A stretch of DNA of 63,106 nt from a virus (IMGVR_UViG_3300024520_000071:1-63106), one strand, 5' to 3'. Positions 6,650-41,300 are shown, numbered from the stretch's first letter. A program made the numbers and translations. The notes: a model not told the origin generated them from the sequence alone.

Positions 6650-7035
6650 GATTCCTCCTGGTTGTTGGTGCCCGGGGCAGGATTCGAACCTGCAACCATC
6701 GGGCAACGGTTTGCGGCCGTTTCCCTCCCGTCGAGGGTTGCCCGGGCTTCTTTGGCGAGTTTGGCTGCTTCGGTCTCAATTTCATCGAGGATCACGGTAT
6801 CGATCATCTTGCACACCTCAAGTTCGTTCCGGAGCTTGACGAGTGGGTCGACCTCACTGTTGAACTGCTCCCAGGACCGGTTGATCAATAGGGGGACATC
6901 CAGGAAGGCACCTCGGATCCCTACCACATTGTCGACTCTCTTCCAGTGCTCTTGCAATCGTTCAGCGATGAATGCGTCGAGTTTTCTGGCGGTTTCCTCT
7001 GCTTCCGGGGGATTCCACTTGTACGTGACTTTCAT
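6646..7035 (-). CDS. Hypothetical protein whose 3' end overlaps a tRNA-like gene
   Basis: ORF MKVTYKWNPP..., ATGA/GTGA overlaps with neighbours. Confidence 0.65.
   Translation of the reverse strand: MKVTYKWNPPEAEETARKLDAFIAERLQEHWKRVDNVVGIRGAFLDVPLLINRSWEQFNSEVDPLVKLRNELEVCKMIDTVILDEIETEAAKLAKEARATLDGRETAANRCPMVAGSNPAPGTNNQEES
6666..6747 (-). tRNA. Atypical tRNA, anticodon GCA, with encoded CCA
   Basis: Acceptor GCCCGGG/CCCGGGC-A-CCA; D stem CCCTC/GAGGG; anticodon stem AACGG/CCGTT with loop CCGCAAA; variable stem GCC/GGT; T arm GCAGG-TTCGAAT-CCTGC. Confidence 0.7.
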
Positions 7036-9398: not shown

Positions 9399-9472
9399 GT
9401 TGCGGGCGGGCAGGTGTTCGCCAGTGGTTCATATCCACAGGACGCTCGGCTCGGTACCGAGGCCCGCAACCA
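9399..9472 (+). ncRNA. Multibranch RNA candidate with T-loop-like hairpin
   Basis: Closing stem GTTGCGGGC/GCCCGCAAC; arm GGTGTTC/GGACGCT capped by GTGG-TTCATAT-CCAC; hairpin CTCG-GTAC-CGAG. Confidence 0.5.
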
Positions 9473-9600: not shown

Positions 9601-9671
9601 ACCTCGGTGGTGTAATGGTAGCACATTGCGCTGTTAACGCTTTTGTGTAGGTTCGAATCCTGCCCGGGGTG
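9601..9671 (+). tRNA. tRNA-Asn(GTT)
   Basis: ACCTCGG/CCGGGGT acceptor, G73, TGGTGTAATGGTAGCAC D arm, loop CTGTTAA, GTAGG-TTCGAAT-CCTGC; anticodon stem has two U-U mismatches. Confidence 0.85.
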
Positions 9672-9673
9672 CT

Positions 9674-21763: not shown

Positions 21764-21921
21764 GCCTATCGACAGAACAATGTGATTTTCACATCACTGA
21801 TTTTACCGTGGATCAACTGCGCGTAGTGGCATTCGAGTGTTTGCCAGCAACCTACGAAGATGAATATTCACCCGAACTTGGCGCCTATGACTTAGGTGGA
21901 CCGGAGAGTGTAGCCCCATGA
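21760..21921 (+). CDS. Small acidic protein (53 aa)
   Basis: Fills the gap exactly with ATGA overlaps at both ends. Confidence 0.55.
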   Translation: MSLSTEQCDFHITDFTVDQLRVVAFECLPATYEDEYSPELGAYDLGGPESVAP

Positions 21922-22124
21922 GATATGTACGACAATTGAATGACGACTGGTGCGTGACGACAGGAGGTAATCGAGTTCTCCTGAACTGCGGCGATAGCGA
22001 AGCAGATGCCCAGGCCGAATGTGACCGCCTCAATGGCGTCGAGCCGAAACCCGTCCTCACGAAACCAGCGCCTGTAAAAAAGGCCCCTGCGAAAAAAAAA
22101 GCCCCGGCAAAGCGGAAGCGATGA
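21918..22124 (+). CDS. Small protein with histone-like KKAPA tail
   Basis: KKAPAKKKAPAKRKR C-terminus. Confidence 0.6.
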   Translation: MRYVRQLNDDWCVTTGGNRVLLNCGDSEADAQAECDRLNGVEPKPVLTKPAPVKKAPAKKKAPAKRKR

Positions 22125-22774
22125 ACGAAGGCCCTCTAATCTGGAAGCCGATGGTTGAAGCTGCGTGCGATGTGTACGACAGCCCCAATCGATTCAGTGC
22201 TGCCGGCGTCGAGTTCTCGACCGAGAAGGTAGGGGATCTGGATTGCTTCATCTTCGCCGGGACCAACGCGGGGAAGTCAGACAGCAAGATCCAGCGCCTT
22301 GCGGCCCGCCTGACCGATTGGGCGCGTAACTGTCGCCGCGGCCGGAAGTCCGTCACTGTCCGAGGGCGAAAGGTCAAGGTGCATTCCGGCTACTGGGAAG
22401 GCGCCGGGATCGCGATGACTCATTTAACAGCGTTTGCGGAGAGGCATGAAGAGATCGGAATCATCGGGCACAGTGCCGGTGCGGCCGAGGCTGCTTTGGC
22501 GGGAATCCAGATCGAGAGCAGGTTCCCCGGCAAGATCAAGCGACTCTGTTGCGCGGCCATGCCTCGGATCGGCAATCAGGCACTGTCCAACGCATTCGAA
22601 AGCCTCTTTCCGATGGCCGATCGTTACCGCCTGTATGGTCGCAAGCGTGATCCTATCTGCTTCCTGCCGGTATTCGGATACAAATTCCTCGCGCCAATCA
22701 CCTGGCTCCCAAGCAAATTGGACGGCAAGCTCGATCACGGCTGCTCGCAATACGCACAACTCGTCAACGAATAG
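22121..22774 (+). CDS. Class 3 lipase (alpha/beta hydrolase)
   Basis: FAGT, VHSGYW, IIGHSAGAA (GxSxG), MPRIGN, RDPICFLP, LDH...Y. Confidence 0.88.
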   Translation: MNEGPLIWKPMVEAACDVYDSPNRFSAAGVEFSTEKVGDLDCFIFAGTNAGKSDSKIQRLAARLTDWARNCRRGRKSVTVRGRKVKVHSGYWEGAGIAMTHLTAFAERHEEIGIIGHSAGAAEAALAGIQIESRFPGKIKRLCCAAMPRIGNQALSNAFESLFPMADRYRLYGRKRDPICFLPVFGYKFLAPITWLPSKLDGKLDHGCSQYAQLVNE

Positions 22775-22781
22775 GGATATC

Positions 22782-25187
22782 ATGTCCAACGTAACTGAAA
22801 ACGTCCTGATGGCGAACTACATCAGCACCACGCTGAACGGGGCGATCCTTGCCGGTGACCTCGCGATGACTTTGACCTCCGTGACCGGACTGCCGACGAT
22901 AACCACGGCAAACGGCAAGCATACCTATCTGGAATTACAGCAGGTGGCAACTCCGGCGAATCGCGAGATCGTCAAGGTTACGGACATCACCGGTTCCGTG
23001 CTGACCATCGTCCGGGCACAGGATGGCACGTCCGCGCTGGGTTTCGCCGATGGCGACCGGGTGCGTATGACGATTACGCGAATCTTGGAGGAGGACTTTC
23101 GTAATGAGCTCAAGGACGTGATCGATTACGTGGACTACGCTCTGCCGGGAATTGCCGACCAGACTGATGCGGCCGTAACCAACTCGATCGCTGAGATTAT
23201 GGCGAATTACGGCGCCACGACGTATCACACAATCATCCTGCGGCCCGGCACGTACACGATTCCAGACAACCTAACGTGCGACCAGTACACATCTTTCCAC
23301 ATTCTCGGGGGCGCCGAGTTTGACATCACGGTGAACAGTAAGACGCTGGCAATCAATGGGGGCGTGATGGCAGGCCACTATCCGATTAAGACGGCACCGT
23401 CAGGAACTGCTCGGAAGATGGAAATCTTCAATCAACCGGCTCTCGTTGAGTGGTATGGCGCCACGCCAAACATGGCAGCAGGAAAGGCAGTTCTCGAAAA
23501 CGCCGCATTGGGTGCCATTCATTTGGTCGTTTCGAGTGGTATCAATGTCGAAGATGATCTCACCTTGGACACCACCCTGGAAATCTTGGAAATCCGCAAC
23601 GGAGCCATCCTCACGGCAACGAGCACAAAGACACTGACGTTCTCTGGGCAGTTTATTCATGCGATTGAAGGCGATCAAGTCTTTGGATCGACAGGCATGG
23701 CTGGAACGATCAATAACGACTCGATAAGCGCACACTGGTTTGGAGCACAGGGCGACGGCGCAACGGACGATGAAACGTCAATCGAAGCCGCAATCACCTT
23801 CTCGCGCGCTGGCGGCACGATCACGTTTATCTCCGGGCTCACATACCTGACCGGCCAGATCAACGTCACCAAAGAAATCATCCTCGACGGCGGACACTTC
23901 AAGAGCACCGCGGCCAATGCCGGGGACTCGCTAATCGATCTGAATGGTTCGGGACCGTCCGACTCAACGATCAGGAATTGCTACATCGAAGTCCCAGGCG
24001 CGACTGTCGGCGGTGATGTCGCCGGTATCAAGATCGAGTCGTCTACCGGCGTGTTCATCTCCAACTGCACATTCAGCGGCGCCAAGGCCGCGGCAAGCAA
24101 CTCGGCCTGCGTTTATCTTGTATCGGCCCAGCGGGTCAATATCGAAAACTGCCGGTTCACCGGAGCGGACGAAAACACAGTGACTTTCGAGAACTCTTCG
24201 AATTGCACGCTCAACAACTGCATCCTGACATCGGCCGGCGCCGTAGGGTCCAGTGTTGAGGTTGCTGGCACGGGCGCCGCCTGCATGATCAGCGCGAACG
24301 TCATCAAGAGCCACCTCGGCAATGGCGTCACAGTCACGGCCTCTGATGTTGCGATCATCAATAATATGATCACCGGCAACGTACTAGACGGGATTGTGGC
24401 GGACGGATCGAACATTGCGATCACTGGCAATAACATCACTGGCGGCGGCGCGAAGACAGATAGTGGCGTGGCTTGCGGATCGAGCGCCAGCGGTATCGTG
24501 ATCTCCGGAAACTCGATCACTGACTTCTCGAACGCGGGTGGAGAAGCTGTGGACATCGATGCGGCAGCGACTGACATCGCCATCCAGGGCAATGTGCTGA
24601 CCGGTAACTTCGCCACCATTACCGATGCCGGCGGCACCAATGTCAAGATCGGCGCGAACGTCGGCGTCGACGACGTGTACATGGCCCAGTACGATACCGC
24701 CAACACGGTTGATGGCGTTGTTCTGGCAGACAACGTATGGACGATCATCCCGATAAACACCGAAATGGTTGGTGCGGATTTCGCGGCGGCACCGGCGGCA
24801 AGTCAGATCACAGTCCAGCCGGGCACTTATGAGTGCAGGTATCAGGTGATGGTGTCGAATGGAGGTGCCCAGACAGGCACATTCCAGGCAAAAATTCGCG
24901 ACACGACCGCCGATTTAGATATCAGCGTGGCAGACGGGTACAGTAGCGACTCTTACTCCCTGGTCGCGAATAGGACAGCGGGCGACGCATCCCAAACACC
25001 CATTGGTAAAACCTTTCGATTCAGTTTAACTGCCGCATCAGACCTTGAAATGCGAGTCTATGCAAACTTAGGCGTGGCAGGCGGAACAGGCAAAGCAGCT
25101 TTTGCCGCATCGGCTATCATTGAACTTCCGGGGGCTTCGGCACCAAAGGAAGTCTACGCCTGGCTCGAAATCCGGAGGGCTCAGTAA
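22782..25187 (+). CDS. Tail spike with parallel beta-helix (pectate-lyase-like)
   Basis: N-terminal EIVKVT....LTIVRAQDGT virion-attachment domain; WFGAQGDGATDD; repeated I.NC.F / I.GN.I rungs. Confidence 0.85.
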   Translation: MSNVTENVLMANYISTTLNGAILAGDLAMTLTSVTGLPTITTANGKHTYLELQQVATPANREIVKVTDITGSVLTIVRAQDGTSALGFADGDRVRMTITRILEEDFRNELKDVIDYVDYALPGIADQTDAAVTNSIAEIMANYGATTYHTIILRPGTYTIPDNLTCDQYTSFHILGGAEFDITVNSKTLAINGGVMAGHYPIKTAPSGTARKMEIFNQPALVEWYGATPNMAAGKAVLENAALGAIHLVVSSGINVEDDLTLDTTLEILEIRNGAILTATSTKTLTFSGQFIHAIEGDQVFGSTGMAGTINNDSISAHWFGAQGDGATDDETSIEAAITFSRAGGTITFISGLTYLTGQINVTKEIILDGGHFKSTAANAGDSLIDLNGSGPSDSTIRNCYIEVPGATVGGDVAGIKIESSTGVFISNCTFSGAKAAASNSACVYLVSAQRVNIENCRFTGADENTVTFENSSNCTLNNCILTSAGAVGSSVEVAGTGAACMISANVIKSHLGNGVTVTASDVAIINNMITGNVLDGIVADGSNIAITGNNITGGGAKTDSGVACGSSASGIVISGNSITDFSNAGGEAVDIDAAATDIAIQGNVLTGNFATITDAGGTNVKIGANVGVDDVYMAQYDTANTVDGVVLADNVWTIIPINTEMVGADFAAAPAASQITVQPGTYECRYQVMVSNGGAQTGTFQAKIRDTTADLDISVADGYSSDSYSLVANRTAGDASQTPIGKTFRFSLTAASDLEMRVYANLGVAGGTGKAAFAASAIIELPGASAPKEVYAWLEIRRAQ

Positions 25188-25651
25188 TGCGGGTACTCTA
25201 CGTTGATGACGATGACGACAACCGCAAGCAATTCTTGATTGCGGCGAGGATCGCACAGGTCGATCTGGATATCGATCTGGCGGCGAGCGTCGATGAGGCC
25301 GAAACGAAGATCAACGGCGTTGGGCAGTACGACATGATCGTCAGCGACGTCATCATGCCGGCGCGCAAGGGATGGGAGTTGATTCCGAAAGCGAAGAAAC
25401 GCGGGTTTCCGCTCGTGTTTGTCACCGCCTACACAGATCAAGCAGAGAAAGATCAGCACCTGTCAGGACATCTGGTCCTGGGGAAAGGCATGAATGGCTC
25501 GCCGACACAAGTCGAACTCTGTCAGGCTATCAGCAATGGAAGATTGGCAGTCATGGCAGCGGTAGATGACCTAAGCCGTTCAGCGGACGAGACGCAGATC
25601 ATGGCAAGGCAGATGACGCGCGAGACAGGACAGATGGTGGCACATGGATGA
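25187..25651 (+). CDS. Stand-alone response-regulator receiver (CheY-like)
   Basis: VLYVDDD (D7,D8), DMIVSDVIMP (D54), GWEL, PLVFVTAY (T80), K100. Confidence 0.88.
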   Translation: MRVLYVDDDDDNRKQFLIAARIAQVDLDIDLAASVDEAETKINGVGQYDMIVSDVIMPARKGWELIPKAKKRGFPLVFVTAYTDQAEKDQHLSGHLVLGKGMNGSPTQVELCQAISNGRLAVMAAVDDLSRSADETQIMARQMTRETGQMVAHG

Positions 25652-26030
25652 TAAAATTCTCGAAAACCTTGGCTTCATTAAAGGCACAATGGAAGGCGTA
25701 CAAGGTGAAATTGGGAAGGCTCGCGAAAATATCGCCACCTTATTCAACTCGGAAGCGGAGCATGACACAGAACTGCAAAAACAGTTACAGCGGATTGAGG
25801 CACTGGAAAAGGTCAATGACGATGCCTCTGAGTCTCAGGGAGATTGGAAGCGCGGGCTTGTCATGCCTTTGCTTGTTGCTGTTATCATGGCCGTGGCAAC
25901 GGCTATCGTCGGTGCCTATATCTGGGTTCAGGTGCAGCGCCAAATTGAAAACATGCGGATAGACCCGACAACACATGCCTTCATTGAAAGTCAACCAGAT
26001 GCGGGGGATGTCGCCGAGGACGGACGATAA
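25644..26030 (+). CDS. Holin-like membrane protein
   Basis: N-terminal coiled coil (RIEALEK) plus one TM helix LVMPLLVAVIMAVATAIVGAYIWV. Confidence 0.55.
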   Translation: MDDKILENLGFIKGTMEGVQGEIGKARENIATLFNSEAEHDTELQKQLQRIEALEKVNDDASESQGDWKRGLVMPLLVAVIMAVATAIVGAYIWVQVQRQIENMRIDPTTHAFIESQPDAGDVAEDGR

Positions 26031-27918
26031 ACTCCTTCCGGCGTCATACTCATCCAGCGCAAAAGATGTCGATCTGCTCTCCGGCAAAATCCGTGCTATC
26101 CTCAACACGGCAGTCGTTGAGGCGATCGGCAGCGGCCAGATGTCCATCTACTACTGGGACGGCCCGAACAAGTGGTTGTCCTGGACTACGGATGTCGATG
26201 TTGTGCGCACACCTATTGGCGGCGACATCTACAACCGGATCTACTTCACAGGTGACGGAACACCGAAAGTCCGTGGGATCGATGCTACTGTCGATTCGGA
26301 ATACGATCTGGGGCTCCCGGCGCCCTCGAACACCCCGACCATCGTCACGCAGCAAAAGAGCCTGACCAACTGGACGCGGACTTGGTACTACTGGTACGAA
26401 GAGCCCGGCGGCAACACTGTCGACGCTGGCACGCTGACCGAAGGCGTGGACGTGATCGAGGTCACCCCGGGTCAATCCTGGACGATCTCGAGCATTCCCG
26501 CGAAGGTCACGGCAACAGCTGATGCTGTGTTCGTGGCCTACTTTGACGGCACCAGCAGCGGTGGCACGCACCTCGGTCGCCTGTGGCCTGATGTTTCTCT
26601 CTACTCTGGGTCCACCGATTTCGTACTGAACGGTGGTATCGGAACTATGACCCAGGTCACGGCCAGCGGTGTCGCGACCTTGACGCTGTCACTCGCAGAT
26701 CCGGATCCTAGCAACTACTCTGTCGATCGAACCTACGCCCAGACCTACGTGTCAGCATGGGGCGAAGAAGGGCCTCCAAGTACGATATCGACCGTGCAGC
26801 GAGTGTCCCCGGCCCAGGATGCTGTGATTTCGAACCTGAACACGACACTGGCCGGGAACTACAATGCCGCCAGCAAGCGGATCTACCGATCGATCACGAG
26901 CTCGTCGGGAACAACCTTCTTCTTGGTAGCCGAGGTTTCTCTTGCAACAGCGACCTACACCGACAGCAAGCTCGACAGCGAGATCAACGGGGCCCTGAAT
27001 GAGCTCAAGTCGGATGGCAACGGCACAGTCGGCCGATCCTGGCAACCGCCGCCTGCCGGCCTCACCGGTCTCGTAGAGATGCCGGGCGGGATCCTGGCCG
27101 GGTTCGTCGGGCGCGAGGTCTACCTGTCGGAGCCGTACCAACCGCACGCATGGCCTACCGGCTATTCCAAGGGCGTCGACTACGATATCATCGGCCTCGG
27201 CGTCACCGGCAACACCCTGGTCATCATGACTGACGGGTTCCCGTACGCCTTGAACGCGATCGATCCGGCCGTGTCGCAGATGACGCGCGTCGAGATCAAC
27301 CAGCCGTGTGTGGCGAAGCGTGGGATTGTCGACGGCGGATCCTTCGTGATCTACCCGTCCCAGAACGGGCTCATCTTCGTTCAGGGCAGTTCTGCCTCGA
27401 TCGGATCCGAGCAGTTCTACACACGAAAGGAGTGGAGCGCCATCAACCCCGAGACCATGGTTGCGGCGATCCACAATCGAAATCTGTACCTGTGGACCGA
27501 CAATATCGGCCTGATTGTCGACATCGACGAACGCGAGATCGGGATTATCGAGACGACTGTCACCGCTACTGGGGTTCACTCAGACCTGGAAAGTGACCGG
27601 TTATACCTCATCTCCGGATCTGACATCGTGGAATGGGAAGGCGGGACGACCCAGATGACCGGCTACTGGCGATCGATGGAGATGACATTCGAACGTGAGT
27701 TCACCCCGGTGATCTATCGCGTGGTTTCCACTGTGTACCCGGTGAGTGTCGAGTTCTACGCGGAGGGTTTGCTCGTGCAGACACTCTCTTGTCCTGACGA
27801 TGAAGCGGCCAAGGTGCCAGTACTCCGGCCAGAGAAGCACTGGATGATCGCGACGTCCGTTGCCGGTGACGTGGATCAGATTATCGTTGCCGACTCACTA
27901 TTGGAGCTCGATCGATAA
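25975..27918 (+). CDS. Tail nozzle/stabilisation protein
   Basis: GMSPR....LLP, R.Y..TYVSAWGEEGPPS, KRIYRS, GL..MPGGILAGF.G.EVYLSEPYQPHAWP. Confidence 0.82.
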   Translation: MPSLKVNQMRGMSPRTDDKLLPASYSSSAKDVDLLSGKIRAILNTAVVEAIGSGQMSIYYWDGPNKWLSWTTDVDVVRTPIGGDIYNRIYFTGDGTPKVRGIDATVDSEYDLGLPAPSNTPTIVTQQKSLTNWTRTWYYWYEEPGGNTVDAGTLTEGVDVIEVTPGQSWTISSIPAKVTATADAVFVAYFDGTSSGGTHLGRLWPDVSLYSGSTDFVLNGGIGTMTQVTASGVATLTLSLADPDPSNYSVDRTYAQTYVSAWGEEGPPSTISTVQRVSPAQDAVISNLNTTLAGNYNAASKRIYRSITSSSGTTFFLVAEVSLATATYTDSKLDSEINGALNELKSDGNGTVGRSWQPPPAGLTGLVEMPGGILAGFVGREVYLSEPYQPHAWPTGYSKGVDYDIIGLGVTGNTLVIMTDGFPYALNAIDPAVSQMTRVEINQPCVAKRGIVDGGSFVIYPSQNGLIFVQGSSASIGSEQFYTRKEWSAINPETMVAAIHNRNLYLWTDNIGLIVDIDEREIGIIETTVTATGVHSDLESDRLYLISGSDIVEWEGGTTQMTGYWRSMEMTFEREFTPVIYRVVSTVYPVSVEFYAEGLLVQTLSCPDDEAAKVPVLRPEKHWMIATSVAGDVDQIIVADSLLELDR

Positions 27919-28829: not shown

Positions 28830-29027
28830 ATGGGCAAGTTGAAGACAATCCAACGGGGCGGCGGCGTTGTGGGTAACGTGGTATCGTCGCCGTGTCCTGA
28901 ATGCAAAGGCAAAGGCAAGATCGGCACTTACCAGTGCTTCATGTGCAACGAGGGTCGCCGCGGTGGCGTCGTTGACGAGTTCAAAGGCAGTAAGATCAGA
29001 ACCTGCGAGGCCCGGGAACAAGGATGA
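28830..29027 (+). CDS. Small zinc-finger protein
   Basis: CPECKGKG..CFMC; AAGGAG RBS. Confidence 0.55.
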   Translation: MGKLKTIQRGGGVVGNVVSSPCPECKGKGKIGTYQCFMCNEGRRGGVVDEFKGSKIRTCEAREQG

Positions 29028-29557
29028 GCGACGTCACGACAGCTGAGTTCGAAGTGGTTGCTACGGTGCGGAAGCCGAAGCCAGAGATCCGTATTGCTAA
29101 CGCATCGGATGTCGCGGGCCTCACTCAGTGCATGATCGACTTTGCCGAGGAAATGGAACTGGGAAGTTTTGGATTGAAGGTCAATCCCCTATCGTTCCAT
29201 GCTTCGTTGCTGAATCAGATGATCAATGCACCTGGGACTTTCGTACTCGTTGTCGAAGCTGATTCTGAGATCATCGGCGGTGCAATGCTTTCTCTCGAAC
29301 CCCAATGGCTTTGCTCGTCGCAGATCGTGGCGATGGAGAAGTTCTGGTACTTGCATCCGGATTGGAGAAAAGGATCGAGCATTGCTATCAGGATGTGGAA
29401 AGCCTGCGAAGAGTGGGCACGCGATTGCAGAGCCGAACTCATGTGCGTAGGCCACTTCGCGAGCGCGCCTCCGGCCGCTGCCGCCATCTATGAACGTCGA
29501 GGCTTTACGCCTTACTTTATCGAATACATGAAGGAGATCAGGCCATGCCAGTCGTAA
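29024..29557 (+). CDS. GNAT-family acetyltransferase
   Basis: IRIA...D, EKFWYLHPDWRKG, YERRGF; usual position before podovirus ejection genes. Confidence 0.85.
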   Translation: MSDVTTAEFEVVATVRKPKPEIRIANASDVAGLTQCMIDFAEEMELGSFGLKVNPLSFHASLLNQMINAPGTFVLVVEADSEIIGGAMLSLEPQWLCSSQIVAMEKFWYLHPDWRKGSSIAIRMWKACEEWARDCRAELMCVGHFASAPPAAAAIYERRGFTPYFIEYMKEIRPCQS

Positions 29558-32304: not shown

Positions 32305-35300
32305 ATGCCCGCACCTCGTCCAAAGGTAGTCCTGAATGCTTACGGTCAGTCGACCCGCGGCATTCCTGGCGGTGTAGCCGGTACGACACAGGGCTACCAG
32401 CCGCGCGTGTCGATACCGAATTACCAAGCTCCCGATCGTCCGGGTGCTTTTGGCGAAGGCGTTGGTGTCGGCATGCAGGGCCTCAAGGAGATGGGCGGTG
32501 CCGCAATTGCTGTTGGCGGCAAGCAATTGGGTAGTCCTGGAATGATGCGATACGGCATCGGCATAATGGATCGCGCCAGCGCCGCACAGCAAGACGTCCT
32601 TACCCGGGCCCAGACCTACGAGGACATCGACGGCTTTGGAACTTTCGTCGAGTGGATGCAGTTCAACATGGGTCGCGCGGCCCCGTCAGTCGCGGAAGTG
32701 GCCGTGAGCTCCATGATTGGCGCGGCAATGGGCGGCGGCGTTGGTGCAATTCCTGGTGCTTTTGGATCCGGCGCCGCGCGTAAAGCGTTGTTGAAGATGG
32801 CCAAAGGAGAAATCCTCGATCGAGCCGAGATGCGTTTGGCGCAGCAGGCAATCAATGCAGCTGGGCGTGCCCAGATTAAAAAGGCCATGGTCAGTGGTGG
32901 CGACGACCTGACCGCGATTACCGCAGCAGTGGGCACAGGTCCAACCGAAGCGATGCAGCTTCTCAAGGCGACTGCGATCGGCCAAGGGGTTCGCGGCGGT
33001 GCTCACGGCGGCGGGATGGCAGCTGGCTACGAGCTCGGCGTCGGAGAGATCGGGTCGAGCCTGTACCAAGCGACCGGCGAGATCCATGCGGGCCCGGCGC
33101 TCGTCGGCGGCATCCCTCACGCCTATCTCGAATACCTTCCCTATGCCACATTGGCTAAGTCCATCGGCAAAACTGTGCGTCGGCAAGCTCAAAAAGATAT
33201 CAACACAATCGTAGCTGAACGAGCCGCTGCCGGCGCTACTCCTTGGAATCCGAACACCGCGATGGCGAAAGCCGCCGCTGCCGGGGTCGCGAAAAGCACG
33301 CTGATCGAGCCGATCACAGAAGAGTTGCAGACTGAGGTCGAGCTCCTGGTCCGTGCTGGCGTCGATCCTACCTTTGATTTTGGCGGCGACGAAGCATTCA
33401 GCCAGCGCATGCACGCATTTATCGACTCGATACCGGGCGGACTGTTCTTTGGAGCTCCTGGGGGTGTCGCTGGCGGCGTACGCGGCCGTAAGGAAGCACA
33501 GGGCATGAATGTCGAGCTCCAAAAGTGGATCGACAAGTACGGCACGGCCCTCGACGACGATCTGGACAATCCAGCTGGCGGCGGTACTGGCGGCACGCCC
33601 GCGGGCACCAAAAATATCCTGGACCCCACGGATTCTGCTGGACTCCCAGTTACTCCGAACCCGGCACCGCCGAACCCGGCACCGCCGACGCCCCCCGCCG
33701 CTCCGGCACCGCAAGGACCGGCCGCGGCACCGCAAGAACCCGCGCCAATGCCGCAAGGCCCCATCGTGCCGCCGCCGCCCGATCCGCCCGCAGCAATGGA
33801 TCCATTCTATGCGATGTTCGAGGCTCATGAGGATGCTTATGTTACTATTAACGGGAAAGACAGTGCGATTCTCATCGCGGCCGAACTTGAGGAAATACGG
33901 TTCAATAGTCCAGAAGAGGTCAAGGCATACGCCATAGATTTATCACGCCAGCAGTTATTCCAGAATATCCAGGCCAAGATAGATGCTGGTATGAACTTGT
34001 CTGCATCTGACCCCAGCGTTGATGACTTTAAGGCGATGCAAGACGCCTTGGAGGGCGCAGGGTTGCCGCGATCGGCCAAGATCGATGAAGAGATTGAATC
34101 TCTCAATGCGCATATTGCCGCAGAGGCAGTTCCAGGGTATGTTGAACCAACCACTCCCGGGGCGCCCGCGGGGGTTGCGTCTGAGCCATCGGTCGGCACG
34201 GCTGGCGATCCAGTGTCAACTTCACAATCTCCACAGGCGACTTCCGGGACTCTTTCGGAAGTCGAAAAACCCAAAACACCAACACAAACGGAGGTGCAAG
34301 ATGCATCCGAAGAACCGGCAGATCAAAACCTCGATGACAATCGGGGACGGGATCGCACACCAAAAGGGGGGAATCGCGTCGAGTCCCCCAAAGACAAGCT
34401 GCGAGGCCGAACGGGCCGGCGGCGAAAAAGGCAAGTCGGAAAAACTGCGGTCGGCAGCGGCCTGCAAGTAGACGGCAAATCGGTAGACCCGGCGGCGAAG
34501 GGCGACCCAGTTCAACCTTCGCTGTCGGAGATGCCTCCCGACCTTCCCGCCGCGAAAGCTACGGTCCCGGACCAGTTCACTACCGAACTTGGATCTACCT
34601 ACGAGATCCATGCAAACAATACCACAACGCGGAATAAGGCTAAACGTAAAGGGCACCCGAATGACTCAGGACTAAAGGATAGGTCCGATCAAACCTACTA
34701 CGTCAAAAGCGATGATGCTTGGCGCCTCGCCCTGCCCGAGGGCAATTTTAGGATCGTTGATCATGGCGACGACACGATAAGTCTCGCCACCCCTGACAAG
34801 AATACAGCGAAATGGGGCATCGCTAAGTCAAATAAAAATATTCCTGTATCGAAGGAACCCTCGGAAGGGACGCATCCTGTCGAGGTATGGTTCAAGACTA
34901 AGACCGAGGGCAGCACGGCCTATCGAAAAGCGCACATCGGGAACAAGATCACCAAAGTGCAGAGCTCGAAGATGACGGAGCAGGAACTGTTTGCGGAGCA
35001 GGAGCAGGAGCAGGAGCAGGAGGCAAAAGAAGTTGCCCCAGAGGCCAAAGAGGATCCACCCGCGAAGAAGCCGGCCGAGAAGAAGAAGCAACCCCTGGCT
35101 ACAAAATCTCCGGTCACTCCGAAAAAGAAACCTGCAAAGAAGGATAATTCGAAACCTACATGGATCAAACCTAGAGAAGGCAAGCCGGCCAGCGATGCGG
35201 CCAAGCAAAGGGCTCTTAGTCTGGGAATCAGAGCCAAAAAACAGCCCGGCGAGAAAGGTCGTTGGGAATGGCTCAACTTAAAAATTTCGAGATTCACAGA

Positions 35301-38300
35301 AGTATTCGTTAAATTTCTCAATGCTGTTGTTGGTATTGACTTTGTGCGTGTAAGGAGTGACATCGACATATCTCATGCACAACTCGAAAGAGATCGTAAT
35401 TCCCTTTATTTAGAGGGCAAGGATTTTGATACGGCTCTAAGAACCGGAGAAGCCACGAAGTCACAGGCCGATGATTTATTGTATTCGATCGGCGAATTTT
35501 CTATTCATGTCAACGAGAGGATGAAACGGATAGACGTCCAGCATCACATGAGCACTTCCTCGGTAGATAAAGAAAAACTTTCAAAGGCCCATAAAGAACT
35601 AAGCGAACTTGCCAGTGCGCTGGATGCTTACTCTGAGGATCTTATCGATTATGCGGAAGTGAATCTAACAGACAAGCCGCGGAAGCAGCCAAAGGCGCCT
35701 GTCGAGAAAAAGGTTCCATTCAAGCCAAAGGAAAATTACGCAGGCCCGCCCCGAGTGTCCTTTCTGGTGACGTGGATGACCGAGAATAAAATCCAGCTGA
35801 AACCCAGAGAAACTACGTCATGGAATAAGGTAAAAACCAAGGGTGTCGCTCTTGATAATAGTACGTTATTTGGGGAGGATCGCGAGGACGAGATTCAGCG
35901 GGCATTAGACTTGATTAAGGAAGTTGATGCATTCGTGGAAAGCCTGAACAAGAAAAAATCACATCCTGATTTTTCGGTGAAACTCTCGACCTTTTCAGCC
36001 GAATTAGTCGATTACTATTCGGACTCTCCGAAAAAGGCTAAAGTGGCACCCGAGCCGACAATCCGGCCACTGGTTGAGCCCAGCAAGAAAATGGCCACAC
36101 ATATTGCCAACTTCCAGGCAGATGTAGAAGCCGACATGCGTGCGTCCCTGGAAAAAGGTCGCACAGTTAAGGTGCCGCCCGCGCTCTCTGTGAAATACGA
36201 TCCCTTCCGACAAGTCGAAGCGAGAGTTGATCCGGATACTCAAGGAATCGAGCTCTTTACAACTTCGAAAAAACATCCGGACGATAAGAGTCCAGGATTG
36301 GTGCCCGGGAAGGCTGGCGAGAAACGTGGCCCCGACTTTGATGACATTGATGGTTTGATCCGTGGTCTGACGGAAGCCGATCAGCGAAGCCCCGCCGAGA
36401 TTGCTGCTGATTCTGCCGAAATTATAGAAGCCTCAAAAGCAGCAAGGAAGCATACTATTTATCGGAAGCTGAAACAAGCTTTTACTGCCGTGCCAAAGTA
36501 CGAAAAGAAAAAAGACAGTAGCGAACGAATTGGGATTGCACGGGCTAATGATGCTGCACGTCATTTTGATGACAAATACAAGAAGGATGATCGCCGGAAA
36601 AACTATCGTATTATCGGCGAAAAAGGATCCGATCAGGTTTTTCTTATAAACAAATTCGATGACGTCATCCAGGAATTCGATTCAATCGATGCCTTCATCA
36701 AAAAATGGGAAGAGAAGGACAAGGAAGAAAAGGCGAAAGATTCTGGCACCCGATTCTCGATGCATCGTGATCCTGATCTTTCCGATGAAAGAGCACCATC
36801 CCGAGCGGAAAATCCGGATTATTCTCCATATAGCGGGAATAAGCAGTCGGGCATAGAAAGGCTGAATAGACTGTCGAAGGACGATAGGGAAGCCCTGTAT
36901 TCCAGAATCAAAACACATCTCACTGATTTCTTCGAATCATGGGATGGGGTTTATGATATCGTCCGATATCTTAGAGAAAGGAGCGTAGATCCAACTGTCG
37001 ATACAGGACAAGCCTACTACAAGAAAGATTACGTCAGAACTGATGGGACTATTGGTATCGGCACAGATAATCTACCCTCGGCTGGGAGAGCGCCCTATGG
37101 CTGGGGCAAGGTCCAAGCCTTTGAAAAGTACTTCGAGGACCATTATCACGATGACCGTCCGAACGATGCTTTAGATACGGATGCACAAATAGAAAAGGCC
37201 ATGGACGTCATGGTTGAATATGTAGCGGTGCGCATTCTTCATAGAGAGGGCATCCTTAGTTCTAAAGAATCTGGAAATCAGCTAGCCATGGCCACTTATA
37301 GTCTATTCGAAAAGGCCCTAAAAGATAATGTCACAGGCATCCGCCCTGATCTGAGAATGCTCATCTTTTTCAACGGCGATCTCGATTATCAAGGCGAGAA
37401 ATTTAAGTCCTATTCTGCCGAGCAAATGGCAAAGAAGCTGGCAGAGCGTCGGAGTAATGCAGAGGCTCTGTATAAGGATCTTCGCACGGAATATGAGTCC
37501 ATGATGAAGGTTCTTGGGGAAAGCGCCGATCCTGATTCATATATAGGCACTCGCTTCTCCCAGCACCGTGACGCGAAACTTGCCGAGGCCGACGAGCTCG
37601 ACAGCCTTGACGAAACCATCGACGACGAGCTCTATTCGCTGCCGGTGGAGATGATGAAGCGAATCTTCGAGTTGAAGGACGCGATCACTCAGGCGTACGC
37701 TGATGGCACGCACGAGACCAAAGAGGTAGAGGACCAGGATGCCGAGCTCGACCATCTCTATAACGAGGCCGAGGCGATACTCGACGCGGCGCACGAGGAC
37801 ATGGGCGCGATCGAGACCGACAACGATCGGTACAAGGCTCCGGAGATTCCCGAGGGTGCCAGTAGCGTGGCATCGCTTGAAGCAGCACTTTCCAAAGTCC
37901 TGGCGGCGAAGGGGTGGACGGAAACGACCAGACCCCATATCGTCCAGTCCGTTGTCGAGCTTCCGTTTGATGCTCCCGCCAACATCCCGGGCGTCTACCA
38001 CAATGGCGAGGTCTGGCTGATCGCCGACAACATCGCGACCGGCCGGGAGCAGCACGCATTTCTCGAGGCCCTGTTCCATGAGCAGGTTGGGCACGTCGGG
38101 GTCCGCCGGATCTTGGGCGACCGCCTCAATGACACGCTCGATCGCGTCTGGGAATCGTATTCTGACAGCGAAGCCATGCTGAAAAACATCGACGTCTACT
38201 TCCCGGATGGCGACTTCGACAGCAATAACCCCGAGCATACCCGTCTGGCGGCAGAAGAGTTCATTGCCCTCCGCGCGCAGCAAGTCCTGCTCGACGGAAC

Positions 38301-41300
38301 AACGATGCCCGGATTCATTAAGCAGATCGTGGCGGCTGTGAGGCAGTTTCTCGCAGATCATGGGTTCACGGTCAAGATGAGCGATCAGGACGTCCTGGCC
38401 CTTATTGTCGCAGCTGACAAAAGTTTGCAGGGACGGCGGAAGTTTTCGGATCAGGTCCAGCGCGGATTGCGGTTTGCCATGGACAACGAGCCGCTGTGGT
38501 TCAGCCAGATGCGCCGGCAGATCGAGGACCATCTCCCGGACAGTGCCACGAACGCGAATAATGCGAAGCGGATCAAGCGATGGATCGGCTCCGGGCTCAT
38601 TACCTCAGAAGAGGTGGAATGGAGCGGGATCCTTGACGAGCTTCAAAGGCGCGGCCAGGACAAGATGTCGAAGGAAGAGGTTCTGCAATACCTTGCCGAC
38701 AATGAGGTCGTTGTTACAGAGAATGTGCTGGGATCCGTGCCCCCAAAGGAATGGCGTGAGGCTGGTGCAGCGTATGCCGAAGCAAATCTCAGAAGAGACA
38801 ATGCCGAACGTGTTCTCCGGGCTCGCAAGATCGAACACGTCAAAGCCGACATCGACTACCTCGACGAGTTGAACGATTTACCGAATCGAAAAAACAGCAT
38901 TGCCAACTATAAAAAGGCATTAGACAAAGCCGAAAAGCTGATGGAAGAGGCCAAGCTCGAAGCAGAAAAAACCACCAAGGAAGCAAATAGGCTATCGAAG
39001 GAATTCTCAAAGGTGCAGCAGGCGAATCCGGCGACGGGATGGGAAGCGCGTCATGACCGCTGGACGCAGCGCGGAGGCGTGGGGTATCAAGAACTGCTTT
39101 TGTTCTACACGCCGAAAGGAAAGCCTGGGGAAGTAGAGAAAGCGCCAAAGGAATACAAAGACGCTCTTTTCTATTATGATGCCCTTGTGGATGATGTTCG
39201 CGATCTGACTTCCTGGGATCAGCACGATCTCGATCTACTCAACAAATGGGATCACGACGAAACCGTGCTGTCGGAAATGGAGAAGGATCACGTTCGGGAC
39301 ATGCTTGAACAGTCACAGATGGACATGGTGACACGAAGCCGTATGGTTTTTCTGGGACAGGGAATATATAGAGCAGCAAAGGGCAATCGATTCTTCATCG
39401 GCACCAGTCATAGAAAATACCGTAACATCGAAGACCGTTTTTTTGTTTACCAAGAAGAGCAGCAGGCACTCGAAGGTGATCATGACGCCGCGCTATTCCA
39501 GACGAACTCGTTCGAAGAGGCACTGAGCGTGGCGACGGGTAGTACGCAAGGAAACGTGTTTTCGTCCGATCACTTCCCGGACACTAACAACTTCTTTGCG
39601 CACGTTCGCTTCAAGACGCGATTCGATGCAGACGGCAATAAGGTTTTGTTCATCGAAGAATACCAGTCGGACTGGAATACGAGAGCGCGCAAAATTCGCC
39701 AGGACCGTATCGCGCAACTGATTAACCAAAACTACACGAAGGCCCAAGCAGAAAGTCTTATTCCTGAGACTTTTGGTTATGGTGACACGCCGGGCATGAT
39801 CTGGACAAGGGTATCCGGAGATGAAATGACCTCAGAGTCTACTCGGGGGGATGGTCGCAAATGGCGATGGACTATCGTCCGAAAGGCCGATAACCATTTT
39901 GATCTAATCAATCCCGCCAATATTCCAGAAAAGTTTTCATCTCTGGCCGATGCCAAACGTCATGCCGAAGCTATCAATTCGGAAATGGTAGAAAGCGTTC
40001 CTGATCTTCCGTTCAAGCAGTCTGCCTTAAAGATGGGCATGCGCCGGATGATTCGCCATGCCGCTGAAAACGGATATGACAAGATCGCCTGGACTCCGGC
40101 AGAGATGCAACTCCGTCTTTATGATACCGGCTTTAATGGCAGAGTCGAATGGACGGTCAACCGAAAAAACATAGATATTGTACTAAGTAATCCCAAAACT
40201 GACCGATCTACGGATTTGATCATCAGCCATAAGGGGGAAGTGGTATCTGGCGATCAACTGAACTTGAACATCAATCGCCAAAAGGATATCTCTGACTTCC
40301 TGCCGCCTGGAATCGTTGACGAAATTCTCGGTTCTCCAAGCGGTCATCGGCAAATGATCGATGATGTTTCCATTGGCGACCAGAAGGCCCCGTTGATCTA
40401 TGACAAGAATATGGTCCGGGATACCGCGAGGTACGTGAAGCAATGGGGCGCGACTGTCGAGAAATCGCCGATCATATTCAACAAAACCAACGCCAGGGTC
40501 CGGATGCTGAACGGAACCCCAACGGTCCTCGACAACCAACCTCCTACCGAGGACAATACCGATTCTGACGATCGCGTAGAATTTCCTACCATTGCAGCGG
40601 CCGAAGCCGAAGTCGAACGCCGTAACCGCCAGCATGCCATGGAGCGTAGTGAATCTTTAGGGCAGGATGTCCACTCTGTCACGATCACGCCGGAGATGCG
40701 GCAAGCTGCCCGACGCGCGGCGCCGATGTTCAGTCGGCCGGCAAAGAATCCGACGACGGACGAGCAGACCCGATTCTCCATGCACAACGCCATGGACGAG
40801 GCAATCGCGCCCGAGTTGGAAGATTCCGGGCACAAGCAAGGCAAGACCGACAAGCTCCGCGGCGCGCGACCGTGGTTCCTGGGCGGTTTCTCTCTTGATC
40901 AAATCCTGGAAGTCTGGGACGATCTCTTCGATAAAGGGCTTGCGCATCATGGCGTGACGTACGGCAAGTTCGATGCCTCGAAGGTCGAGCGGCAGACGAG
41001 GGGCGTGGACGTCGGTCAGCGGCTCTGGGACTATCATGACAGCCACACCGATACCGAGACGGGGCAATATGGTTCTTCTATGACCCGTCTGTTCTTGGAC
41101 GGCACGTTCTTCAAGCTCACGCCACATGGCCCGTTCGAAGAAGGTTTGAACATGGAAGAGACGAAGAGCATGTTGCGTCAGGCGAACCTTGAATATGATG
41201 CCATGGAGAAGATGTCTTCCTCTAAGGAGAAAGAGGAAGAACTGGCACTCGCCAAGAAAGCGATACAGGTCATGGAACGCGACATCCGGGAAGAGGACAC

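Follow-up and report, generated by a model that had tools for sequence, protein, structure and literature searches.

An orphan receiver domain encoded beside a small membrane protein in a podovirus-type phage and its possible connection to lysis

The virus record IMGVR_UViG_3300024520_000071:1-63106 of IMG/VR, which comprises 63,106 bp with a GC content of 56% and a CheckV completeness of 95% and is referred to in its full length as the window, encodes a single-domain response-regulator receiver of 154 residues and, directly downstream, a bitopic membrane protein of 128 residues. Both genes lie within a podovirus-type structural module that forms a plus-strand block from 13.9 to 46.8 kb. The features of the locus are:

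22782..25187, plus strand: tailspike with right-handed β-helix (open reading frame (ORF) 22434..25187, first plausible ATG at 22782)
25174..25179, plus strand: Shine-Dalgarno-like GGAGGG (the GGAGG core at 25174-25178 ends 8 nt before the receiver ATG)
25187..25651, plus strand: single-domain receiver, 154 residues (domain 1-116, C-terminal helix 119-152)
25644..26030, plus strand: bitopic membrane protein, 128 residues (from the ORF, hydropathy and an AlphaFold2 model)
25975..27918, plus strand: podovirus virion or tail protein, 647 residues from the ATG at 25975 (alternative start at 26008)

As the original prediction had read from the sequence, the start of the receiver gene overlaps the end of the tailspike gene in the motif TAATG, the stop codon TAA at 25185-25187 sharing one base with the ATG at 25187-25189. 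At its other end the receiver gene runs into the membrane-protein gene. Within ATGGATGA at 25644..25651 (+) the ATG of the membrane-protein gene (25644-25646) precedes the receiver stop codon TGA (25649-25651), and the resulting 8-nt overlap suggests that the two genes are translationally coupled. The membrane-protein gene in turn overlaps the gene of the 647-residue protein by 56 nt (ATG 25975) or 23 nt (ATG 26008). A consensus scan of the plus strand from 21,869 to 26,574 detected no promoter-like or terminator-like site and, because of the 8-nt overlap and the lack of intervening signals, receiver and membrane protein are assigned to one late transcription unit. The GC content is 0.496 for the membrane-protein gene, 0.555 for the receiver gene and 0.56-0.59 for their neighbours.

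Pfam PF00072 matches the 154-residue protein with 36.2 bits at a cut-off of 30.2 (E 7.3e-09, profile positions 1-88 of 111; 35.9 bits in the whole-genome scan). The AlphaFold2 model, calculated from a 10-row alignment (predicted local distance difference test score (pLDDT) 81.6, predicted template modelling score 0.73), depicts a (βα)5 fold of five strands and five helices, which is followed by an amphipathic C-terminal helix of 34 residues (119-152), similar to the helices through which DctD-type receivers pair. Foldseek searches of the PDB return receiver domains with a probability of 1.00 and TM-scores by query of 0.55-0.64, with DctD (1l5y), PhoB (1zes), RR468 (3dge), CheY4 (4h60), HupR (2jk1), PleD and WspR ranking high. 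The acidic pocket D7-D9 is kept, D54 and T80-A81 align in phmmer searches of PDB chains with the phospho-acceptor aspartate and the conserved threonine of solved receivers, and K100 coincides with the lysine of the KP motif in a 10-sequence alignment. Family match, predicted fold and alignments bear out the CheY-like domain that had been proposed with D7/D8, D54, T80 and K100 as catalytic positions, and the model also contains the proposed helical tail of about 35 residues. Judged from sequence and predicted structure, the receiver appears to keep the residue set required for phosphorylation. It deviates from other receivers in a short helix α4 (85-91), which is shorter still in its relatives, and in a lysine followed by glycine (KG) instead of proline (KP), a feature of four of the five members of its family. 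A KP motif and an α4 helix of normal length are usual in receivers, not universal.

Neither Pfam nor NCBIfam detects a second domain; a single helix follows the receiver domain and the ORF is bounded by the neighbouring genes, in agreement with the predicted lack of a DNA-binding output. The expectation that the genome would lack a histidine kinase is met as well, HATPase_c, HisKA and Hpt each giving no match at E≤1 across the 63,106-bp record (95% complete). The protein is thereby confirmed as a real, orphan and output-less response-regulator receiver. In fold and catalytic residues it corresponds to CheY, DivK, CpdR and Spo0F as well as to DctD, HupR and WspR, which carry a C-terminal helix, proteins whose output proceeds by protein contact. 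Unlike these bacterial proteins, it is encoded by a phage, belongs to the late genes and lacks a cognate kinase, in addition to its short α4 and the KG in place of KP. The best NCBIfam rows include the receivers of CckA, CpdR, PleD and CtrA, all far below the respective cut-offs.

The receiver belongs to a small and rare family. HMMER searches over 1.84 billion representatives yielded 871 proteins at E≤1e-3; among the 150 best matches listed, only P0002, P0015 and P0060 are of the same size (147-148 residues) and match over the full length. A profile search of 5.8 billion proteins adds P0152, giving a family of five (P0001, P0002, P0015, P0060 and P0152) with E-values from 1e-58 to 6e-66, followed at 1.7e-10 by ordinary receivers. 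The similarity runs over the full length including the C-terminal helix, with 29-34% identity to the window protein (MAFFT). In the four-member alignment D8, D9, D54, T80, A81 and K100 are invariant, whereas D7 is glutamate in two relatives and aspartate in the third; conservation of these residues at such low identity would argue for selection on phosphorylation chemistry. By tblastn against GenBank phages no relative of the window receiver was found at E≤1e-3 and none of P0002 at E≤1e-2. Pattern scans of IMG/VR recovered no relative of the family, and scans of metagenomes and genomes with the family alignments gave 80 and 74 loci, respectively, all with ordinary cellular receivers and none with a family member. 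Beyond the family, the nearest sequence relatives are found in hybrid kinases and further cellular regulators, as their receiver domains. The only full-length cellular match to a family member (P0060, 32% over 148 residues) is the C-terminal receiver of a 714-residue hybrid histidine kinase (locus L024, 1085-3229), which hints at a derivation of the phage family from a hybrid-kinase receiver.

The membrane protein is composed of an acidic N-terminal domain of 68 residues (net charge -9, no signal peptide), a membrane helix at about residues 72-95 and an acidic C-terminal tail of 33 residues. Its hydropathy peaks at 2.62 in the 19-residue segment starting at residue 72, and a single-sequence AlphaFold2 model of low confidence (pLDDT 63.7) places helices at 2-35, 40-64 and 73-104 ahead of a disordered tail. 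The original prediction of a downstream gene with a coiled coil and a transmembrane segment holds with respect to the 8-nt overlap and the one membrane helix; the coiled coil is better read as a predicted helical N-terminal domain. With its net negative charge and in the absence of a signal peptide, this domain most likely faces the cytoplasm, within reach of the receiver. When the receiver (4-row alignment) was co-folded with residues 1-70 of the membrane protein, both runs gave a score of 0.00 and the tool verdict 'no answer', which speaks neither for nor against binding.

Among the PHROGs, the membrane protein matches best phrog_2412, weakly (E 2.2e-4), and second best phrog_937 'hemolysin', again weakly (E 8.1e-4, 20.7 bits, residues 16-89 on profile positions 34-107 of 115). 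No Pfam family is matched, nor any holin family in Pfam, PHROGs or NCBIfam, and a word-index search among 5.8 billion proteins retrieved no homologue. The ESM Atlas proposes unnamed viral clusters and DUF7201 with scores of 0.90-0.91, at which the chance rate is 4-10%. Of the properties expected from a holin, the small size and at least one membrane helix are present, a holin-family match and an adjacent endolysin are absent. The designation as holin-like, which had been given to the gene, is an interpretation and nothing that was observed in the sequence.

In order to describe the genomic slot of the pair in relatives of this phage, the 647-residue protein was employed as marker. It matches phrog_511 'internal virion protein' with an E-value of 7.4e-119 and has 115 relatives in IMG/VR; tblastn retrieved 364 phage records, none of which reaches 60% identity. 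With this protein 80 IMG/VR loci were fetched with up to 6 kb of flanking sequence per side and screened with the family hidden Markov model for the receiver and with phmmer for the membrane protein, both at E≤1; the window's own genes were recovered as positive control. The region upstream of the 647-residue homologue is highly variable among the 73 mappable relatives. In at least 19 of the 80 loci this slot contains a match to one of nine endolysin seeds, and Pfam identifies Phage_lysozyme in L117 and L118, Peptidase_M15_3 in L147 and Peptidase_M23 in L128. Small membrane proteins accompany the endolysin genes of the slot. In eight loci (L085-L088, L094, L108, L118 and L119) a helical protein of about 58 residues (from the first ATG) with a C-terminal membrane helix is encoded just upstream of the lysozyme gene, separated from it by one small gene in three of them. 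These proteins share the layout of the 128-residue protein of the window at undetectable sequence similarity. The slot occupied by the pair thus holds lysis genes in a part of the relatives. Two loci (L089, 3456-5144; L090, 3530-5215) harbor a 136-residue helical protein and a protein of about 340 residues between the tail fibre and the 647-residue homologue, which may resemble the accessory protein and the reverse transcriptase of a diversity-generating retroelement.

A corresponding arrangement is found in six cultured Alteromonas phages, in each of which an orphan receiver of 125-153 residues lies inside or against lysis-type genes and beside a small membrane protein. The gene orders are:

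V22: tail fibre, chaperone, weak C92 amidase match, ORF29, receiver (149 residues), ORF31, ORF32
A5: gp10, receiver gp11, gp12, gp13 (two membrane helices), gp14 annotated as endolysin
R8W: tail fibre, annotated class II holin, gp47, receiver (153 residues), gp49, small terminase
R9Y1: tail fibre, membrane/helical protein of 121 residues, receiver gp12 (150 residues), lysozyme with GH108 and PG_binding_3
XX1924: protein with four membrane helices, phrog_937 protein of 101 residues (E 1.2e-12), receiver, DUF5675, holin phrog_3427 (E 2.3e-39)
PB15: protein with four membrane helices, phrog_937 protein (E 1.8e-16), receiver, Peptidase_M15_3

In V22, ORF29 has a weakly hydrophobic N-terminus followed by helices, ORF31 resembles the Rz-like spanins of phrog_4297 (E 7e-6) and ORF32 contains two membrane helices. 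An N-terminal membrane helix with further helices is predicted for A5 gp12 and for R8W gp47, and the R8W receiver (g48) is followed with a 4-nt overlap by the membrane protein gp49. Overall, the flanking proteins either show the phrog_937 layout or begin with a membrane helix, after which basic residues and a helical domain follow, and the helical part would in these proteins, too, fall in the cytoplasm. The gene order is maintained in uncultured relatives of A5 and R9Y1. All six receivers retain DD, D, S/T and K; they form about three groups with roughly 28% identity between groups, none of them near the window family, and together with the window receiver they match the generic PHROGs 731 and 5982. 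Since HATPase_c is above its cut-off in none of the five Alteromonas phage genomes scanned, these receivers are orphans as well. The association of orphan phage receivers with small membrane proteins and lysis genes in other phages is hence supported as a recurring one.

Like the window receiver, the proteins V22 gp30, A5 gp11, R8W g48, R9Y1 gp12 and those of XX1924 and PB15 are orphan single domains encoded after tail-fibre genes and flanked by small membrane proteins in the absence of a kinase, in most cases with a short C-terminal receiver helix. Contrary to the window, the Alteromonas phages have genes next to the receiver that can be recognised as endolysin, holin or spanin. Furthermore, the helical membrane protein is located downstream of the receiver in the window and upstream in all six Alteromonas phages, three of which have a small membrane gene downstream as well. 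The window also represents a different phage type with an apparently different host (GC 56% compared to 40.55% for R8W). The parallel is one of architecture and context, not of orthology. As the constant neighbour of the Alteromonas receivers is an accessory membrane protein and not a protein of a holin family, 'holin-like' is probably the wrong label for the window protein even if the connection to lysis is right.

In published work the 'CheY-like' or 'PhoB' genes of Alteromonas phages are filed as signalling auxiliary metabolic genes (PMC7289586, PMC10579305, PMC8228385). In V22, A5 and, according to the authors, P24 the CheY-like gene belongs to a mobile tail-fibre module and is shared between morphotypes jointly with the genes for tail fibre and chaperone (PMC10579305). 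The block that the same source gives as hypothetical proteins and a CheY-like auxiliary metabolic gene (V22, L236, 10960-13039; A5, L237, 3131-5245) looks like a lysis cassette, with an Rz-like spanin match, a two-membrane-helix protein and an amidase or annotated endolysin. A divergent receiver described for jumbo phages is linked with NAD/ADP-ribose systems (PMC7824862) and is not relevant to the present case. Burkholderia phage vB_E427 encodes a longer protein that includes a receiver, in surroundings that do not look phage-like. In a literature search that left subscription journals and supplementary files outside, no paper was found that ties a phage receiver to a lysis cassette. Within this scope, orphan phage receivers have already been reported, and neither their placement in lysis cassettes nor a link to lysis was found stated.

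The frequency of such neighbours was compared with that beside cellular receivers. A neighbour was counted if its gene had the orientation of the receiver gene, lay no more than 60 nt away from it and encoded at most 170 residues with one or two hydrophobic segments. It is present in all eight phage receiver loci (the window, the six cultured phages and L250), which represent about four receiver lineages and not eight independent events, and beside one of 89 stand-alone cellular receiver ORFs, a control that overstates the contrast for a reason given below. The control set was derived from 154 cellular and metagenome loci, of which receiver ORFs of at most 175 residues with room on both sides were retained. 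ORF calling and the hydropathy rule are crude: the upstream proteins V22 ORF29 and A5 gp10 failed the rule, and the neighbours downstream of the respective receivers passed.

Taken together, we tentatively prefer the explanation that the receiver is competent for phosphorylation and regulates, in an accessory capacity, a membrane protein associated with lysis, at the lysis or envelope step, and regard it as a little less than evenly probable. Receiver and small membrane protein, encoded one directly after the other, would both be made late in infection, and the receiver would be phosphorylated by a host kinase or phosphotransferase (Hpt), or by a small donor such as acetyl phosphate, which many receivers use without a kinase. 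Its phosphorylation state would alter the α4-β5-α5 face and the long C-terminal helix, and the altered receiver would govern docking on the cytoplasmic helical domain of the membrane protein. The latter would then be a holin-associated or antiholin-like factor instead of the hole-former itself, so that the timing or mode of lysis would be modulated. Phosphorylation, physical contact, topology and the effect on lysis timing are all inferred.

As closest functional precedents, the antiholins of T4 and XhlA of the Bacillus subtilis element PBSX can be named. XhlA is a small membrane protein whose partners are XhlB, a holin, and XlyA, an endolysin (PMC5589764); PBSX, unlike the window, has no receiver. 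A helical N-terminal part and one C-terminal membrane helix characterise the window protein as well as the XX1924 and PB15 members of phrog_937. The Pfam family XhlA is not matched by the window protein (E≤0.1) or by the XX1924 and PB15 proteins (E≤0.01), and BLASTP of the window protein against the phrog_937 protein of XX1924 gave nothing. The family phrog_937 'hemolysin' would correspond to XhlA. The T4 antiholins RI and RIII are small holin-binding accessories which set the timing of lysis on a signal, namely superinfection, RIII from the cytoplasmic side. The same side is proposed here for the receiver, with phosphorylation in place of superinfection as signal; no homology is claimed.

Several observations weigh against this explanation. 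The window receiver is related to those of the Alteromonas phages at the superfamily level only (BLASTP E 0.059 against V22 gp30), and its membrane protein is without detectable similarity to the membrane proteins flanking receivers elsewhere (hhalign, BLASTP). No endolysin was recognised in the window (PF00959, PF01464 and PF01510, nine endolysin seeds, Pfam scans of 26 ORFs), so that a lysis cassette around the membrane-protein gene cannot be demonstrated in this genome. Accessory genes often insert at the ends of late operons beside tail-fibre genes, and small membrane genes abound in the genomes of phages; for this reason the cellular control overstates the contrast. About four of the roughly 95 ORFs of the window are of the small-membrane kind, and the background within phages is estimated to be nearer 8% per gene. 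Finally, neither the receiver nor a homologue of the membrane protein occurs in any of the 80 related loci, and PF00072 is absent from all 31 whole records of relatives, 16 of them at least 90% complete. The expected conservation of the pair across related phage contigs has thus failed to materialise; being absent from all relatives examined, the pair is dispensable for this virus type, and the two genes are a rare accessory insertion. The lysis switch originally put forward is thus supported in part: the orphan receiver, its translational link to a bitopic protein and a recurring association of such receivers with lysis genes are upheld, while conservation of the pair in relatives, a match to a holin family and a recognisable endolysin were not found.

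A different role would be that of a decoy or phosphate sink directed at host signalling, such as a cell-cycle, envelope-stress or motility phosphorelay, with the adjacent membrane gene being incidental. Phosphate sinks are an established function of single-domain receivers in bacteria. The absence of a kinase or Hpt from the phage, the hybrid-kinase and other cellular receivers as closest relatives outside the family, the appearance of CckA, CpdR, PleD and CtrA among the best NCBIfam rows (far below their cut-offs) and the publications cited above, which class the Alteromonas proteins as signalling auxiliary metabolic genes, all agree with such a role. The same NCBIfam scores, however, favour no particular host pathway, the receiver gene is situated in the late structural operon and not among early host-takeover genes, and neither the codon overlap with the membrane gene nor the small membrane neighbour in eight of eight phage receiver loci would be anticipated. 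We therefore consider this role unlikely, if still a serious contender.

Distinctly improbable, in our judgement, is a phosphorylation-independent adaptor or assembly factor, whose receiver fold would scaffold, chaperone or dimerise proteins of tail, fibre or membrane and travel with the host-recognition module. The position between tailspike and tail protein would suit it, as would the fact that the CheY-like gene of Alteromonas phages moves between morphotypes jointly with those for tail fibre and chaperone (PMC10579305), the atypical domain with its short α4, KG for KP and 88 of 111 Pfam positions, and the presence of receivers with a dimerising C-terminal helix, e.g. DctD, among the top Foldseek matches. 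A pure scaffold would nevertheless not be expected to keep the phospho-acceptor set invariant at 29-34% identity, a set also kept in the six other phage receivers, and none of the 31 related genomes needs such a factor. Likewise small is the probability assigned to two unrelated neighbours, i.e. separate accessory genes in a permissive slot without common function. Here the high variability of the slot among the 73 mapped relatives, the lower GC content of the membrane gene (0.496 compared to 0.555 and 0.56-0.59), a hint of separate origin, and the lack of homologues of either gene in relatives are set against the 8-nt stop/start overlap and the same type of neighbour in about four receiver lineages versus one of 89 controls.

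Phage fitness is set by the moment at which lysis occurs, and the timers known so far are antiholins and clocks intrinsic to the holin. If true, the placement of a receiver in the lysis module would constitute a new timing input by which a phage reads host phosphorylation without a kinase of its own. A wider version of the preferred explanation holds that in some tailed phages a receiver charged by the host, through a phosphorelay or acetyl phosphate, binds the cytoplasmic domain of a small lysis-associated membrane protein and ties lysis to the signalling or energy state of the host. The window would then be a divergent instance of a module that Alteromonas phages, across all three tail morphotypes, carry in their lysis cassettes. 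This generalisation is rather doubtful. Taken alone, the window is of modest significance, a rare accessory gene pair with a putative function, and its interest derives mostly from the pattern across phages, which it extends by a divergent family of receivers and, in another type of phage, a different gene order. This pattern makes the hypothesis of phosphorylation-gated lysis testable in cultured, non-pathogenic marine Alteromonas phage-host pairs (A5, V22, R8W and R9Y1).

The structural module surrounding the pair begins with a portal/adaptor protein (phrog_332/1216) and the major head protein (phrog_267), continues with a class-3 lipase, the β-helix tailspike, the receiver, the membrane protein and the 647-residue protein, and ends with a tail-fibre-like protein, a GNAT acetyltransferase and a protein of 3859 residues. 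The tailspike matches Pfam Beta_helix (E 6.1e-14) and PHROG tail spike families. The lipase (217 residues, 22121-22774 (+); Lipase_3, E 8e-10; phrog_21992 esterase/lipase) is encoded directly upstream of the tailspike in the same variable slot; as the genome contains no recognisable endolysin or spanin, a function as lipid-targeting exit or entry enzyme is conceivable. PADLOC reported a weak receiver-domain match (19.1 bits) and an SspC match (22.3 bits), which were not taken as a defence system.

The 3859-residue ORF (32305-43884 (+)) matches phrog_30335 (E 5e-91) and phrog_10089 'DarB-like antirestriction' (E 2.7e-80) with its C-terminal 800 or so residues and is probably an ejected internal protein. 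An N4-like identity of the phage, an idea raised by this ORF, was dropped, the PHROG matches being large proteins of unknown function or DarB-like proteins and not virion RNA polymerases. The tail and internal-protein module also contains the GNAT acetyltransferase (29024-29557 (+); Acetyltransf_1, E 9e-09) and a CXXC zinc-finger-like protein of 65 residues (28830-29027 (+)) with a weak DnaJ_CXXCXGXG match. Three tRNA genes, Cys-GCA (6666-6747 (-)), Met-CAT (9401-9472 (+)) and Asn-GTT (9601-9672 (+)), are located in the minus-strand early region, two of them on the strand opposite to the surrounding ORFs.

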